Numbered from the stretch's first letter, positions 13,575 through 35,046 are shown. The stretch: DNA of 64,000 nucleotides from Lichenihabitans sp. (GCA_965277115.1 CBDIBY010000010.1:277136-341135); one strand, 5' to 3'. The notes: a model not told the origin generated them from the letters alone. Numbers and translations: made by a program.

Positions 13575-14858
13575 CTAGCCCGAGACTTCATCCGCGCCGC
13601 ACCAATCAAAAATGGTGAGCGCCATCACCTTGATCGAGGTGATGTAATCTTCGATGGAGACATATTCGTCGTTCGAATGCATCACGGCTGTCGATCCCGG
13701 CCCGAAGATCACGGTCGGGGTCCCGCCATAGCTGTTGAGGAACCGCGTATCCGCAGCACCCTGGCGGCCGCTGATCTCGGGATCGCGCCCGGTGATCTCC
13801 TTATAGGTCTTGCACAGGGTCTCGACGATCGCGTGATCGCGCGGGATCTCGGAGGCCTCCGCGTCATAACCGACGAACCGCACGATCGGCGGATGGTCCT
13901 TCATCCATGGATCCTGGGCGGCGAGCTGCGCGATCTGCTCGACGAGGCTCCGCTTCACGCCTTCGTGGTCCTCGCCCGGAACGGTTCCGATGCTGCCCTT
14001 CAACAAAGCGCTGGCCGGGAAGGCGCTCGGATAATTGCCGGCCGAGAAGCTGCCGATCATGCAGGGCATGGAATCGAGGGCATTGGGATAGAGGGGGTGG
14101 GACACGGTGGCGATGCGCTTCGCCTCGAGCGCGTTCACGGCTTCGACGATCTTGTTGCCGAGTTCGATGCCGCTGATGCCGTCGTAGCGCTTCTGAATGC
14201 CGACGGGTTTCCCATGCACCTCGATTTCGAACCAGATCCGTCCGATACACGCCGGTTGCACCGCAAGATCGCTCGTCTCGCCGGATATGCCCGCGTCGGC
14301 CTTGTAACCCCGGATCACCGTATCGAGCGTTCCATGGCCGCTGACTTCCTCGTCGATGACGATGTTGATATGGACGTCGCCCCGGGGCGTAAGCCCTGCC
14401 GCTTTCATGAATTCCACCGCCATGATGTGGCTGGCGACGCCGCTCTTCATGTCGGCCGAACCGCGCCCGTAGATGCGACCGTCCTTGATGGTCGCGGACC
14501 AGGGATCATCGCTCCATCCCTCCCCGCCGCCGACCGGAATCACATCCGTATGGCCGTTCAACAGGAGCGAACGGCCATGATCGGAGCCCTTGAGGGTCGC
14601 CACGATGTTCGGTCGTCCCTCGTAACCCCGGCTCACCGGCCGGTAACCGGGGTGCGTCTTCAACTCCTCCCAATCGGTCTCCCACATGTCGACGTCGAGC
14701 CCGATCATCGTCAGGTAGCCGGAGAGGAACGTCTGGATCGCCGCCTCGTCGCCGGTCACGCTCGGGATCGAGATCATCGTCCTGAGGAAATCGATGGCCT
14801 TGTCGCGGTTTCCGTCAATCGTATCCAGCAATCTGCGGCGTGAGTGATCCGTGCCCAT
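13575..14858 (-). CDS. M20-family metallohydrolase (ArgE/DapE/ACY1-like amidohydrolase)
   Basis: Motifs LLLNGHTDVIPVG, GRGSADMKSG and IVIDEEVSGHG. Start chosen at Met16 (14858) because GGAGAA lies 4 nt upstream. The longest ORF starts at 14903. Confidence 0.8.
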   Translation of the reverse strand: MGTDHSRRRLLDTIDGNRDKAIDFLRTMISIPSVTGDEAAIQTFLSGYLTMIGLDVDMWETDWEELKTHPGYRPVSRGYEGRPNIVATLKGSDHGRSLLLNGHTDVIPVGGGEGWSDDPWSATIKDGRIYGRGSADMKSGVASHIMAVEFMKAAGLTPRGDVHINIVIDEEVSGHGTLDTVIRGYKADAGISGETSDLAVQPACIGRIWFEIEVHGKPVGIQKRYDGISGIELGNKIVEAVNALEAKRIATVSHPLYPNALDSMPCMIGSFSAGNYPSAFPASALLKGSIGTVPGEDHEGVKRSLVEQIAQLAAQDPWMKDHPPIVRFVGYDAEASEIPRDHAIVETLCKTYKEITGRDPEISGRQGAADTRFLNSYGGTPTVIFGPGSTAVMHSNDEYVSIEDYITSIKVMALTIFDWCGADEVSG

Positions 14859-14933
14859 AGATTTCTCCAAACCTGAAGCCGGAGCCGTCGTGGCCCCGAT
14901 CATGTGCGTCTTGCCGGCGAGCCGGCGCGATGC

Positions 14934-15638
14934 CTACCCGCCGAGGTAGGCCTGCCTTATGTGTCCGTCCTCGATGAGCGCCTGGCCTACCCCGTCCTTC
15001 ACGATGGTGCCCGATTCCAACAGGTAGGCGTGATCGCACATGTCGAGGGCCGAATAGGCATTCTGCTCGACCATCAGGACGGTCGTCCCGGCGTCGCGAA
15101 TACCGGAAATGATCTCGAACACCCGGTCGACGATATTGGGTGCCAGTCCGAGCGAGGGTTCATCGAAGAGGATGAGCTTCGGCTTCGACATGATGGCCCG
15201 GCTGATCGCCAGCATCTGCTGCTCGCCGCCCGACAGCGTTCCCGCCACCTGCCGGCGGCGTTCCGCCAGCCGGGGGAAGCGGTCGAAGACGTGCTCCCGG
15301 TCGGCCAGGATCTCGTTGTGATCGGCGCGCAGATAGGCACCCATGTCGAGGTTCTCCTCGACCGTCATATGGGCGAAGATGCGCCGCCCTTCGGGGCAGT
15401 GCGCGATGCCGCGGGCCAGCCTTTCGCGCGCCGAGCAGCGGGTGATGTCATGGCCTTCGAACAGCATGCGGCCGGCGGTCACCGGCAGCAGGCCGGAGAT
15501 CGCCCGCAGCGTCGTGCTCTTGCCAGCGCCGTTGGCGCCGATCAGGGCCACCAGCTGCCCCTTCGCGACCGACAGCGAGACCCCTTTGAGCGCTTTGACC
15601 TTCCCGTAGCAGCAGACGAGATCGCTGATCTCAAGCAC
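14934..15638 (-). CDS. livF: Branched-chain amino acid/amide ABC transporter ATP-binding protein (LivF type)
   Basis: Walker A GANGAGKST, signature LSGGEQQML and Walker B LILFDEPS. A GTG start overlaps the livG stop. Confidence 0.9.
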   Translation of the reverse strand: MLEISDLVCCYGKVKALKGVSLSVAKGQLVALIGANGAGKSTTLRAISGLLPVTAGRMLFEGHDITRCSARERLARGIAHCPEGRRIFAHMTVEENLDMGAYLRADHNEILADREHVFDRFPRLAERRRQVAGTLSGGEQQMLAISRAIMSKPKLILFDEPSLGLAPNIVDRVFEIISGIRDAGTTVLMVEQNAYSALDMCDHAYLLESGTIVKDGVGQALIEDGHIRQAYLGG

Positions 15639-16428
15639 GTTTCCTGGCTCCCTGCCCGAGATAAGCGCGAATCACGTCCGGGTTCCCCTGAATCGCCGCA
15701 GGCGGTCCCTCGGCGATGATCCGACCGTAGTTCAACACCACGATCCGGTCGGACACGCCCATCACCATCGGCATGTCGTGTTCGACGAGCAGGATGGAGA
15801 TCCCAAGCTCACGCACGCGCCCGATGAGCTTCATGAAACGCTGCGTTTCGGACGGGTTCATGCCCGAGACCGGCTCGTCCAGCAGCAGCATGGAGGGCTT
15901 GGCCGCCAGCGCGAGGGCGACCCCGAGGAGCCGCTGATCGCCATAGGGCAGCGAGCCCGCGAGCTCGTTCCGGCGATGGTCGATGCCGACCAGCCGCAGG
16001 ATGTCGCCCGCTTCTTCCCTGAGTTCCCGCTCGGACGCCTTCTCGCGTGGCAGCGCCAGCAACGTGTCCCAGAGCGTCGAGCGACCGCGGCGATGCAGAC
16101 CCGTCAGGACGTTGTCGAACACCGTACTGGCCTGGAACACGCTCGTGCGCTGGAAGGTCCGTACCAGGCCGAGAGCCGCAACCTCGTGGGGCTTGAGGCC
16201 TTTGAGGGAACGGCCGCGATACCGGACCTCGCCCTTGGTGGGGCGCATGAAGCCGGTGATCACGTTGAAGGCGGTCGTCTTGCCGGCGCCGTTCGGCCCG
16301 ATGAGGCTCAGCACCTCGCCCTCGCGGACCGAAAACGTCATATCCGAGATGGCGATGAGGCCGCCGAAATGCACCGCGACATGTTCGATCGTCAGCGCCG
16401 GAGCGGCGGTGGAGACCAGAAAGGTCAT
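15631..16428 (-). CDS. livG: Branched-chain amino acid/amide ABC transporter ATP-binding protein (LivG type)
   Basis: Internal ATG (16428) of ORF 15631..17196, in ATGA overlap with the livM stop. Motifs GPNGAGKTT, LPYGDQRLL and LLLDEPVSG. Confidence 0.9.
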   Translation of the reverse strand: MTFLVSTAAPALTIEHVAVHFGGLIAISDMTFSVREGEVLSLIGPNGAGKTTAFNVITGFMRPTKGEVRYRGRSLKGLKPHEVAALGLVRTFQRTSVFQASTVFDNVLTGLHRRGRSTLWDTLLALPREKASERELREEAGDILRLVGIDHRRNELAGSLPYGDQRLLGVALALAAKPSMLLLDEPVSGMNPSETQRFMKLIGRVRELGISILLVEHDMPMVMGVSDRIVVLNYGRIIAEGPPAAIQGNPDVIRAYLGQGARKRA

Positions 16429-33983: not shown

Positions 33984-34042
33984 GCCGGCTCCCGTTCGCT
34001 ATTGTCTTGCGCGGCCGAGGCCGCGGCCCAATTCGGGCGCTA

Positions 34043-34059
34043 AATTCATCCTATTTTAC
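34043..34059. promoter_or_regulatory. Half-site-like AT-rich element upstream of the hydroxylase operon
   Basis: Minus-strand AATAGGATGAATT matches AATAGTATGAATT of the 23758 site at 12 of 13 positions. There is no full palindrome here. AAGACAATAG (minus strand, 33997-34006) resembles AAGACAATAT next to the 29511 site. Confidence 0.3.
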
Positions 34060-34185
34060 CAAAGATAGCAAGAGAGCCGCGTCATGAGTCCGGGAATCCC
34101 GCCACCCCGATCGCATCCGGATGCGGCGGCGACGGGTTTCGCCGCCGAACGGATCTGTCCGACGACATCGACCGCGCCCGCGGGA

Positions 34186-35046
34186 TCAATCGCGCGAGGA
34201 CGTGCCGGACGAGACGGCTTTCTCCGGTCTTGCAGAAGTCCGCCGGGCCGTGACCAGCGGGGTCCGCCGTTTCCGGCCGAGGGTGCCAGGGACTTCGGGC
34301 GGCGGCGCGACCGTCCCTAACAGATCGATCTGCAGCTGAATGCAGTCGGCGCGATAGACGATGTCGGCGACGTAGACGGCGCTGTTGCTGGCGTCGACGA
34401 CGACGCAATGGCACCGGACGATCGGCGCGCCGAGCGGGATCTTGAGAAGGTTCGCGGTCTCGGGGTCGGCGCTGTCGATCACCAGCCGCTGATGGGCCTT
34501 CGTCACCTCGACGCCGTCCAGTTCGGCAAGCACCGCCAACGCCGCGGATTGGAGAAAAAGCACGGGTTTCATGTCGAAGACCCGGCGTGCCAGATGCAGG
34601 TTAACGATCGAATAGGGTTCCCCGCCTCTGTACTGAACGCTGTGCAGGAACACGTAGGCGGGTGCGAGTTCCCCATCGCCCGGACGCAAGTTCGGCGGCG
34701 AGGCCTTCTCTTTCAAATCGATCTGCTGCGGTTTGTTGTGTTTCACCGAATCGATGAGACTGGTCCACGTCGTGCCGAGTTCGAGCCAGTGGCGGTCGGG
34801 CTTGCGCTCCGCCACGAAGGTACCCCGGCCCTGCTGGGCATGGAGAAGACCTTCCTGACGCAACATGTCGATCGCCTGGCGGACGGTGACGCGGGCCACC
34901 TTGAACTCGCTCTCGAGTTCCTCGAGGGTGGAAATCTGCTGGCCGAGCGACCATTGGCCGGTCTCGATCCGCTGCCGCATCACGGAGGCGACCTGGATAT
35001 AGAGGGGAACCCGGCTCCGGTCGTAGGCTTTTTGAAACTCGGACAT
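34186..35046 (-). CDS. GntR-family transcriptional regulator, HutC/UTRA subfamily
   Basis: Internal ATG (35046) of ORF 34186..35322. Winged HTH: LGQQISTLEELESEFKVARVTVRQAIDMLRQEGLL, followed by a UTRA-like domain. The ~45-aa Arg/Pro/Thr-rich C-terminal tail is of uncertain reality. Confidence 0.8.
   Translation of the reverse strand: MSEFQKAYDRSRVPLYIQVASVMRQRIETGQWSLGQQISTLEELESEFKVARVTVRQAIDMLRQEGLLHAQQGRGTFVAERKPDRHWLELGTTWTSLIDSVKHNKPQQIDLKEKASPPNLRPGDGELAPAYVFLHSVQYRGGEPYSIVNLHLARRVFDMKPVLFLQSAALAVLAELDGVEVTKAHQRLVIDSADPETANLLKIPLGAPIVRCHCVVVDASNSAVYVADIVYRADCIQLQIDLLGTVAPPPEVPGTLGRKRRTPLVTARRTSARPEKAVSSGTSSRD

Follow-up and report, generated by a model that had tools for sequence, protein, structure and literature searches.

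F420 biosynthesis within a conserved, apparently co-regulated catabolic gene cluster of Lichenihabitans sp. and related bacteria

What do aerobic Proteobacteria use the deazaflavin cofactor F420 for? A review published in 2021 reported that no F420-dependent enzyme had been studied in Proteobacteria and stated the role of the cofactor there as an open question, and in Paracoccus and Oligotropha F420 occurs only in trace amounts (PMC8498797); no later study of an F420-dependent enzyme in Proteobacteria was found in the literature searched. The question is posed in concrete form by a stretch of 64,000 nucleotides from Lichenihabitans sp. (GCA_965277115.1 CBDIBY010000010.1:277136-341135; the whole of it is called the window here), in which genes for F420 biosynthesis stand among genes for a molybdenum (Mo) hydroxylase, a CoA-transferase, a luciferase-like (LLM) oxidoreductase, an ABC importer and an M20 hydrolase. 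Our reading, to which we give a probability of about 55%, is that positions 13575-36948 form a single catabolic regulon, conserved and under common control, in which F420 is produced as needed for one F420H2-dependent LLM reductase. That there is a dedicated F420-dependent catabolic module whose genes are co-regulated is well supported, and the specific chemistry that we assign to it is a reasoned hypothesis.

The high GC content of the window (~66%) makes lists of open reading frames (ORFs) noisy; the ORFs were filtered by codon-position GC and then scanned with Pfam and NCBIfam models, with the curated NCBIfam cut-offs applied. Between positions 13575 and 35046 lie 19 genes, all on the minus strand, in the following order: a GntR+UTRA regulator; CoxL, CoxM and CoxS::CoxG; NpdG, CofE, CofD, CofC and FbiC; the two subunits of the CoA-transferase (CoAT-A and CoAT-B) and the LLM oxidoreductase; the periplasmic substrate-binding protein (SBP), a DUF1989 protein, LivH, LivM, LivG and LivF; and the M20 hydrolase. 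This is the gene set and the order that an earlier note on this DNA had described, and the scans bear it out. The boundary drawn in that note, 13575-35046, has to be moved: its gene list omitted the genes for an AsnC/Lrp regulator and a 2,3-diaminopropionate (DAP) ammonia-lyase (DAPAL), which extend the cluster to 36948. The unit is 13575-36948, because the neighbours on both outer sides are unrelated, with polysaccharide-export genes to the left of M20, and a DeoR regulator and a sugar ABC transporter to the right of DAPAL. Once the gene starts were refined using ribosome-binding sites and ortholog lengths, six gene overlaps of 4-8 nt each became apparent, along with four tightly coupled blocks: CoxL-CoxM-CoxS; NpdG-CofE-CofD-CofC(-FbiC); CoAT-A and CoAT-B, which overlap by 8 nt, with the LLM gene 22 nt downstream; and LivH-LivM-LivG-LivF. 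The blocks are set apart by gaps of 135-366 nt, the larger gaps being GntR/CoxL (202 nt), CoxSG/NpdG (206), FbiC/CoAT-A (135) and LLM/SBP (366), followed by SBP/DUF1989 (152), DUF1989/LivH (197) and LivF/M20 (75).

The blocks are tied together by a shared AT-rich palindrome, TACTA-N4-TAGTA. With at most one mismatch allowed, the pattern TACTANNNNTAGTA has exactly 3 matches in the 64 kb, against 0.01 expected, and all three fall in gaps of the cluster, one ahead of the F420 genes, one ahead of the CoAT-LLM block and one ahead of the SBP gene (sites 1 to 3 in Table 1). Site 1 overlaps a sigma-70-like TTGTCT-17-TATGAT, a promoter-like match at 29530-29502; generic scans of the window for promoters and terminators performed at chance level, and the conserved palindrome alone was informative. 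Upstream of coxL, comparison by eye of the window (CTCTTGCTATCTTTGGTAAAATAGGATGAATT) with the related locus L001 (CTCTTGCTATCATCCTAAAAATAGGATGAATT; related loci are numbered L001 to L086) reveals a degenerate copy of the element, for which the position weight matrix (PWM) score is below 12, against 24.7-27.2 for the copies in L001, L002 and L086. Of 33 palindrome matches in 1.54 Mb of fetched loci, 29 belong to loci that carry the cluster, and their placement relative to the genes is retained: the element precedes npdG or pxpA-npdG in 14 related loci, separates fbiC from the gene that follows it (PALP or CoAT-A) in L001-L003, L006, L012, L015, L081-L084 and L086, and precedes the SBP gene in L001, L002, L012, L015 and L086. 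The PWM also finds the element upstream of pntA in L003, L006, L082 and L086, where an operon for the transhydrogenase PntAB follows M20 (L003:18309-21478, L006:18411-21313, L082:12480-15383, L086:18577-21503) and is preceded by the operator copy CTTACTATAAATAGGTTGA; NADPH would thus seem to be supplied under the same control as the pathway. In its extended form, the consensus (cTTGtaTTaTCt-TACTAat.ATAGTA-TGAt) resembles a -35/-10 promoter overlapped by an operator. One conserved predicted control element is thus common to the genes for F420 synthesis, to CoAT-LLM(-M20), to the importer and the Mo hydroxylase, and to the transhydrogenase in the loci that have it, which argues that the blocks are not independently regulated. 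The obvious candidate for the protein that would bind the palindrome is the HutC-type GntR regulator, orthologs of which (53-58% identity) adjoin the cluster in L001, L002, L008, L009, L018, L081-L084 and L086. In Mesorhizobium marinum, the operator upstream of npdG is duplicated together with its flanks, the two copies (L006:6421 and 6574) lying 153 bp apart. Elsewhere in the window, a weak PWM match at 43917-43936 (18.4, compared with at least 26.7 for the real sites), between genes for a PfkB kinase and a fatty-acid desaturase, is probably due to chance.

The second line of evidence is conservation. An FbiC scan with one genome per species gave 80 best loci, which, with 10-kb flanks, were searched with all window proteins (tblastn). 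Eight of these loci carry CoAT-A/B (L001, L002, L003 from Kaistia granuli, L004, L006 from M. marinum, L012, L013 and L015), and seven of the eight the LLM as well, L013 ending inside the CoAT-B gene; the CoAT and LLM orthologs are 72-89% identical to those of the window and are accompanied by varying subsets of M20, CoxLMS, Liv, GntR and DAPAL. Accessory members adjoin the F420 genes in four more loci (L008, L009, L011 and L018, the last from Cupriavidus numazuensis). All 12 rank within the 18 nearest relatives of FbiC; Hyphomicrobiales and Kaistia are represented in the nearest FbiC loci, at 74-76% identity, and the more distant FbiC loci have just npdG-cofEDC-fbiC, with unrelated LLMs and none of the cluster genes. 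The picture from the LLM side is the same. A search with the window LLM gives 3368 relatives at E <= 1e-40, the best 120 of which are at least 78% identical, and in all six contexts sampled on this side (Chelatococcus sp., Mesorhizobium sp. B2-4-9, two metagenomic contigs, L085 and the pSymA plasmid of Sinorhizobium meliloti), the F420 genes adjoin CoAT-AB, LLM and M20, with fbiC within ~4 kb; CoxLMS::CoxG and GntR are usual companions, and a DAPAL-type pyridoxal phosphate (PLP) enzyme or PntAB is a frequent one. The set recurs, too, in Afipia-like and Xanthobacteraceae metagenome-assembled genomes (MAGs) and, in a plasmid collection, on pSymA of 12 Sinorhizobium records including S. meliloti GR4, where the order is LivHMGF, npdG-cofEDC-fbiC, CoAT-AB, LLM, M20, PntAAB, CoxLMS, SBP, DAPAL, GntR and the genes are orthologous to those of the window at 54-83% identity.

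The neighbourhood check that the earlier note had called for thus finds the blocks together in at least 14 other loci of several genera, in shuffled order: M20 can directly follow the LLM, CoxLMS can follow M20, and the Liv genes can precede npdG. Because the orthologs stay together through repeated rearrangement, a functional unit is strongly supported. Gene order that differs between genomes would also be expected if a housekeeping F420 operon had come to lie, by chance or within an island, beside functionally unlinked catabolic and transport genes, and the transposases and integrases that flank L085, as well as the location of the S. meliloti copy on the accessory part of pSymA, would fit such an origin; but this explanation is already contradicted by the persistence of the same orthologs despite the shuffling and by the common cis-element, nearly absent elsewhere, and we consider it highly improbable.

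Table 1. Genes and control elements of the F420-linked cluster, in order of position in the window
Feature	Position	Strand	Evidence and remarks
M20 (ArgE/DapE-type) deacylase	13575-14858	-	Pfam Peptidase_M20 E 5e-34 and M20_dimer; TIGR01910 269.6 bits, cut-off 217.6
LivF	14934-15638	-	LivFGMH together: Pfam ABC_tran, BCA_ABC_TP_C, BPD_transp_2
LivG	15631-16428	-	See LivF
LivM	16425-17459	-	See LivF
LivH	17456-18340	-	See LivF
DUF1989 (UAAP-like) protein	18538-19278	-	Pfam DUF1989 E 4e-64; TIGR03424 207 bits, below cut-off 285
SBP (Peripla_BP_6)	19431-20594	-	Pfam E 7.5e-66
Palindrome site 3, TACTAAACATAGAA (minus strand)	20774-20787		Upstream of SBP gene; PWM 26.7
TIGR03619-family LLM oxidoreductase, predicted F420-dependent (Bac_luciferase)	20961-21914	-	TIGR03619 193.5 bits, cut-off 166.9
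CoAT-B, CoA-transferase beta subunit	21937-22707	-	PDB 1poi_B E 9e-46
CoAT-A, CoA-transferase alpha subunit, GctA type	22700-23671	-	PDB 1poi_A E 3.6e-42
Palindrome site 2, TACTAATAATAGTA	23758-23771		Upstream of CoAT-A, CoAT-B, LLM; exact match; PWM 33.2
FbiC (fused CofG/CofH), FO synthase	23807-26227	-	NF006687 1144 bits, cut-off 1018
CofC, 2-phospho-L-lactate/phosphoenolpyruvate (PEP) guanylyltransferase	26229-26933	-	TIGR03552 163 bits, cut-off 105
CofD, transferase forming F420-0	26930-27922	-	TIGR01819 297 bits, cut-off 257
CofE, F420-0:gamma-glutamyl ligase	27919-28680	-	TIGR01916 272 bits, cut-off 181
NpdG/Fno, NADPH-dependent F420 reductase	28680-29357	-	TIGR01915 189 bits, cut-off 150
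Palindrome site 1, TACTATAAATAGTA	29511-29524		Upstream of npdG-cofE-cofD-cofC-fbiC; exact match; PWM 30.9
CoxS fused to CoxG	29564-30769	-	Pfam Fer2, Fer2_2, COXG
CoxM, FAD subunit	30766-31605	-	Pfam FAD_binding_5
CoxL, molybdopterin subunit	31602-33983	-	Pfam Ald_Xan_dh_C, MoCoBD_1, MoCoBD_2
Degenerate element copy	34049-34062		Upstream of coxL; promoter part and right half-site kept, left half-site mutated
GntR-family regulator, HutC subtype (GntR HTH + UTRA)	34186-35046	-	Pfam GntR, UTRA
AsnC/Lrp-family regulator	35145-35639	-	Pfam HTH_AsnC-type, AsnC_trans_reg
DAPAL, PLP-dependent	35779-36948	+	NF006058 484 bits, cut-off 276

All five F420 genes exceed the NCBI curated equivalog cut-offs, and in FbiC the models of the CofG and CofH domains each score above cut-off as well. 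CofE is a single-domain protein that lacks the C-terminal nitroreductase domain of FbiB, and tblastn detects no homolog of that domain (FbiB-C, the dehydro-F420-0 reductase) in the 64-kb window; such a gene may be located elsewhere in the genome. In three relatives, a stand-alone FbiB-C-like nitroreductase gene adjoins the F420 genes (L012:21853-22335, L018:13081-13731, L042:5210-5758), which hints that this lineage uses the PEP/dehydro-F420-0 route. On the MAG contigs L008, L011 and L013, fbiC and npdG stand beside M20, CoxL, Liv, GntR and DAPAL genes with no cofD or cofE adjoining, so that either cofD and cofE are located elsewhere or these variants use FO instead of F420.

In most loci, the CoAT, LLM and M20 genes directly follow fbiC, no gene of the window is assigned to the source of the lactyl moiety (2-phospho-L-lactate supply or dehydro-F420-0 reductase), and variants of F420 are known from Proteobacteria. 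From these facts one might conceive of an extended biosynthetic cluster, in which CoAT, LLM, M20 and the CysK-like enzyme of relatives alter the deazaflavin or build a derivative of the cofactor or some other small metabolite. The same operator, however, also precedes the SBP-dependent importer, the Mo hydroxylase and PntAB and would control them, the neighbouring genes for DAPAL, RidA and pyruvate carboxylase are catabolic, and most F420 producers do without these genes; a biosynthetic role of this kind is, accordingly, improbable.

The CysK-like PLP enzyme, a protein of ~500 aa with N- and C-terminal extensions, is encoded between fbiC and CoAT-A (L001:12464-13978) and is present in 11 loci (L001, L002, L003, L006, L012, L013, L015 and L081-L084). 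It is absent from the window (tblastn), S. meliloti, L004 and L085, which have a shorter version of the cluster. The window also lacks, by tblastn, several other genes that accompany the cluster in relatives: PxpA, an Fe-S serine dehydratase encoded after the LLM in some of them, PntAB, the FbiB-C-like protein, and RidA and pyruvate carboxylase.

If F420 is made for the module, which enzyme would use it? The LLM oxidoreductase (317 aa) is the sole predicted F420-using enzyme of the cluster, and we propose that it is an F420H2-dependent reductase. The earlier note had named it a candidate F420 enzyme and asked for a subfamily assignment; the protein scores above the curated cut-off of TIGR03619, an F420 class, and its next-best NCBIfam models are F420 classes as well. 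Among solved structures, phmmer places an FMN luciferase first (PDB 8cbb, 88 bits) and the F420 enzyme Mer second (79 bits); in a Foldseek comparison, Mer, FGD1 and Rh-FGD occupy ranks 1-3, with the FMN enzyme SfnG tied (the mean pLDDT of the model is 76.8). The matches include the F420 dehydrogenases Fgd and Adf, and with them comes the opposite direction of the reaction: the LLM could be an F420-reducing dehydrogenase of the Fgd/Adf kind acting on a hydroxy or amine intermediate, with F420 as the acceptor and Fno passing the electrons on to NADP+. Fno is known to be reversible, and Fgd-like enzymes are listed for F420-producing Alphaproteobacteria in the 2021 review. But in four relatives the same operator precedes pntAB, whose product normally generates NADPH, the oxidative step is already covered by the Mo hydroxylase, and the LLM reaches only 62 bits on the Fgd model TIGR03554, against a cut-off of 420, so we consider an oxidative LLM unlikely. 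At that score, assignment of the protein as Fgd is rejected, and the label 'F420-dependent G6PDH' (glucose-6-phosphate dehydrogenase) carried by the S. meliloti ortholog is unsupported. The presence of co-regulated PntAB points to a demand for NADPH, hence, to a reductive role of F420H2.

The oxidative partner would be the CoxLMS enzyme, which comprises the molybdopterin, FAD and 2x[2Fe-2S] subunits of the xanthine oxidase family of Mo hydroxylases. The closest solved relative of CoxL is quinoline 2-oxidoreductase (Qor; 1t3q_B, E 2e-141), followed by mycobacterial CO dehydrogenase and a nicotine-pathway dehydrogenase. Thus, the enzyme appears most like the hydroxylases of N-heterocycles, in support of the suggestion in the earlier note that it hydroxylates such a compound. 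Two other identities were rejected. For CO dehydrogenase, a regex scan of CoxL finds neither AYXCSFR (form I) nor AYRGAGR (form II), the region reading PYRGVAR, and TIGR02416 scores 436 bits against 991; for the 4-hydroxybenzoyl-CoA reductase type, the CoxL match has E 1.5e-72, compared with 2e-141 for Qor. The fusion of CoxS with CoxG is retained in L081-L084 and L086.

Next to the LLM stands a two-subunit CoA-transferase, for which the best solved match of both subunits is the glutaconate CoA-transferase GctAB of Acidaminococcus fermentans (PDB 1poi). The two systems share the two-subunit family I architecture and the catalytic glutamate of the beta subunit, ILFEGG of CoAT-B aligning with IIVESG of GctB such that the glutamate of FEGG matches the catalytic one; 7 orthologs all keep this putative catalytic residue (E54). 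Sequence similarity to GctAB is moderate (phmmer E ~1e-42 and ~1e-46). CoAT-A orthologs are 78-85% identical to the window protein, and among plasmid-borne CoAT homologs, the 12 S. meliloti cluster copies are 80-90% identical, with all others below 60% and, among the matches listed, at 44% or less; the window CoAT therefore represents a distinct subfamily of putative CoA-transferases. The earlier note had this enzyme activate a late dicarboxylate. An activating function is retained here, but the operon coupling of the CoA-transferase with the LLM makes activation of the substrate for reduction at least equally likely. The next-closest CoA-transferase pair (~44% and ~32% identity) is found beside an LLM on a haloarchaeal plasmid; it was rejected as evidence of orthology, the neighbouring LLM being just 28% identical to that of the window.

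The M20 protein is a candidate for the cleavage of an N-acyl or N-carbamoyl group with release of the free amino acid, and its orthologs (69-81% identity) directly follow the LLM in L003, L004, L006, L081-L083 and L086. It belongs to the same superfamily as YgeY, but was rejected as a member of the YgeY subfamily (NF009555 122 bits versus 321, TIGR03526 84 versus 321). Uptake would be the task of LivHMGF, the ATPases and permeases of a LIV/HAAT-type ABC importer, encoded by genes that overlap by 4-8 nt and have orthologs of 63-82% identity in related clusters. The closest solved relatives of the SBP (orthologs 59-77% identical) are the amino-acid-binding proteins 3td9, 4gnr and 3ip5 (E 1e-28 to 1e-23), which are too distant for naming a ligand.

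The best clue to the end product is the pair formed by the AsnC regulator and DAPAL, whose genes are divergent in the window. Solved relatives of DAPAL are 5ygr and 4d9g (E 1e-67 to 1e-63), of which 4d9g, an E. coli-type DAPAL, matches at E 1e-63. Next to the cluster, DAPAL orthologs with 54-63% identity are encoded in L003, L004, L008, L081, L082 and L086; an AsnC gene adjoins the DAPAL-type PALP gene in L081 and L082 too, and DAPAL is adjoined by RidA in L004 and by pyruvate carboxylase in L008. We propose DAPAL for the last step, the release of pyruvate and ammonia.

The gene content, the conservation of the set, the common cis-element and the family assignments are results of the analysis; what we infer from them is which way the LLM reaction runs, how the steps follow one another, that the substrate is a heterocycle and that DAP is the product. 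The LIV-type ABC system would import a carboxylic acid that contains nitrogen and is probably heterocyclic or similar to an amino acid, to which the Mo hydroxylase would add an oxo group next to the ring nitrogen, with the electrons going to the respiratory chain and the CoxG domain possibly tethering the enzyme to the membrane. The glutaconate-type CoA-transferase would convert a carboxylate to the thioester, and CoA could be recycled from product to substrate; the LLM would then transfer a hydride from F420H2 to an activated C=C or C=N bond. F420 would be re-reduced from NADPH by Fno, the NADPH being topped up in some relatives by the co-regulated PntAB. After the opening of the ring, M20 would remove the remaining acyl or carbamoyl group, and the DAP set free would induce DAPAL via the AsnC regulator and be broken down to pyruvate and two ammonia. 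We hypothesize that the module breaks down N-compounds by a combination of oxidative and reductive steps, using a deazaflavin that it supplies itself.

Several observations weigh against this scheme. Pfam and NCBIfam scans find no ring-opening cyclic amidohydrolase among the cluster genes of the window, and the ring-opening candidates in relatives vary, being PxpA or PxpABC, a PyrC-like protein in S. meliloti, and Amidohydro_1 in L085. The preference of the LLM for F420 over FMN is indicated by its hidden Markov model subfamily and genomic context, the structure comparisons being tied. The CoA-transferase fold is found in hydrolases and decarboxylases as well (IpdAB, AibAB). No palindrome precedes the DAPAL gene, which is paired with a regulator of its own and so could belong to a neighbouring module. 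Finally, given the lack of the CysK-like enzyme, the pathway in the window version may be reduced or altered.

The lack of a ring-opening amidohydrolase is what a linear substrate would predict, for instance, an N-acylated or opine-like amino acid such as an N-acyl-DAP, of which a plant non-protein amino acid would be an example; M20 would then free DAP, CoAT and the LLM would process the (di)carboxylic acid released, and an aldehyde or another side product would be left as the substrate of the Mo enzyme. M20 enzymes normally cleave linear N-acyl or N-carbamoyl amino acids, GctAB-type enzymes are known to act on dicarboxylates, the nearest solved relatives of the SBP bind amino acids, and in S. 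meliloti the genes are associated with nodule competitiveness, which suggests a compound of plant origin (PMC8407117). Such a substrate is nevertheless doubtful in our estimation: CoxL is far closer to quinoline 2-oxidoreductase than to aldehyde oxidoreductases (E 2e-141 against 3e-50), and degradation of a linear compound leaves no obvious role for a low-potential hydride carrier.

How, then, does the proposed F420-dependent degradation of an N-heterocycle relate to known systems? The earlier note could match the gene combination to no described pathway, and we found no characterised match in the literature searched. One published parallel in logic is the reductive urate (2,8-dioxopurine) pathway of E. 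coli and Clostridia, with a Mo enzyme, a reductase, amidohydrolases, the M20 protein YgeY and the DAP lyase YgeX (PMC12507026; bioRxiv 10.1101/2025.04.24.650524); for a variant from Chloroflexota, its authors predict a reductase of the luciferase family that depends on F420 (PMC12507026). The urate route, which reduces the ring and ends in pyruvate and ammonia, shares with the window a Mo enzyme of the xanthine dehydrogenase family, an M20 hydrolase and a DAP ammonia-lyase, the window DAPAL being of the YgeX type. There are differences as well. Homologs of SsnA, HyuA, YgeW/UacY and YqeA are absent from the window by Pfam and NCBIfam scans, and domain scans find no amidohydrolase-superfamily or carbamoyltransferase gene among the cluster genes; the window has a CoA-transferase pair, whereas the urate pathway has none; the Mo enzyme of the window is CoxLMS/Qor-like, CoxG-fused and of the aerobic type, whereas urate degradation uses the selenium-dependent XdhD; and the window cluster itself includes F420 biosynthesis genes. 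With SsnA, HyuA and YgeW missing, the urate pathway proper was rejected.

The second comparison is with nicotinate degradation via 1,4,5,6-tetrahydro-6-oxonicotinate (THON) in Eubacterium barkeri, Azorhizobium caulinodans and Bradyrhizobiaceae. In Azorhizobium and Bradyrhizobiaceae, nicotinate is aerobically hydroxylated, then reduced in the ring and converted to glutarate (PMC3511419). Hydroxylation by a Mo enzyme followed by ring reduction resembles our proposal and occurs in aerobic Hyphomicrobiales too, and the route includes an ABC importer and proceeds via glutarate, a substrate of the GctAB type (PMC3511419). It relies, however, on a homolog of the ferredoxin-type 6-hydroxynicotinate reductase (HnR) and an enamidase, and does without F420, LLM, M20 and DAP lyase. 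The known nicotinate/THON cluster was thus rejected as an identification: it has a different reductase, the HnR type being absent from the window, and is already assigned (PMC3511419).

The F420 operons of Paracoccus denitrificans and Oligotropha carboxidovorans consist, as in the window, of FbiC, CofC, CofD, a single-domain CofE and Fno; the window operon differs in being tied to defined catabolic genes by conservation and a shared operator. One published list of the genes comes from a genome-wide association study (GWAS) of competitiveness for nodule colonisation in S. meliloti, in which these pSymA genes were associated with the competitive strains GR4, KH35c and KH46 (PMC8407117). The listed genes include the fbi genes, LivF, SBP, PyrC, M20, GctA/B, 'F420-dependent G6PDH', 'caffeine dehydrogenase', PntAB and GntR, that is, the same gene set, but given as separate COG functions, with F420 treated in general terms and no pathway or regulon proposed (PMC8407117).

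A wider scenario can be drawn from these comparisons, but only tentatively and at well short of even odds: in a large group of soil- and plant-associated Alphaproteobacteria, and in some Burkholderiales, F420 might not serve as a general redox cofactor but be produced when needed, under the control of one repressor, to supply one F420H2-dependent LLM reductase whose substrate is an N-heterocycle hydroxylated by the Mo enzyme and activated with CoA, in an undescribed aerobic reductive ring route that ends in DAP, with a substrate derived from plants and a benefit for nodulation competitiveness. The cluster offers a concrete, testable reason for the presence of F420 in aerobic Proteobacteria, one that names a candidate F420 enzyme, its partners, a regulator and an operator. 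If the proposal is true, the trace levels of F420 would be explained as lack of induction, which fits an inducible, niche-specific role; if the proposed chemistry is true as well, F420-dependent, CoA-assisted ring reduction would be added to the aerobic strategies of N-heterocycle degradation. It may also be explained why these genes surfaced jointly in the nodule-competitiveness study (PMC8407117). Tractable hosts with the same set are S. meliloti GR4 and KH35c (pSymA), Kaistia granuli DSM 23481 and Mesorhizobium marinum ZMM04-4.

The relatives display several further variations on the theme. PxpA (LamB/YcsF) is encoded directly upstream of npdG, behind the shared operator, in four loci (L018:4016-6710, L009:3931-6634, L001:6064-6840, L008:5282-6214), and PxpB and PxpC are encoded nearby in C. 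numazuensis; PxpA(BC) points to an ATP-dependent lactam-opening step in some variants. On S. meliloti pSymA, a gene for a PyrC-like dihydroorotase, also a GWAS hit, lies upstream of the cluster (L086:3336-4379); neither the window nor the other loci gave a match to it. In L085 (a 524-kb contig, ENA ERZ26858887), the cluster is flanked by integrases and several transposases and lacks npdG and cofE upstream; its M20 is called as a 740-aa product that also matches the DDE_5 transposase domain. The module appears to be mobile and, sometimes, decaying.

One gene of the window stands outside the conserved set. The earlier note had assigned hydrolytic C-N cleavage to the DUF1989 protein, a role that we abandon, having rejected the protein as a pathway step because it is absent in all relatives (there is no ortholog among the 86 related loci). 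The local GC content of its gene is 53-55%, compared with 62-70% in the surroundings, and perfect hairpins are located just downstream of the SBP gene (14-bp stem, 19382-19412) and ~120 nt downstream of DUF1989 (10-bp stem, 18394-18419). Absence from related loci, the low-GC stretch and the hairpins indicate that DUF1989 is, probably, a recent insert between the SBP gene and livH.

Beyond the cluster, the window encodes exopolysaccharide functions at 1742-13390 (phosphomannomutase, ManC, WecG, Wzz-type tyrosine kinase and polysaccharide export) and flagellar proteins at 49638-59300 (FliI-type ATPase, MotA, FliM/N, FliG and FlhB), along with ffh; with these genes in the flanks, the setting looks chromosomal.

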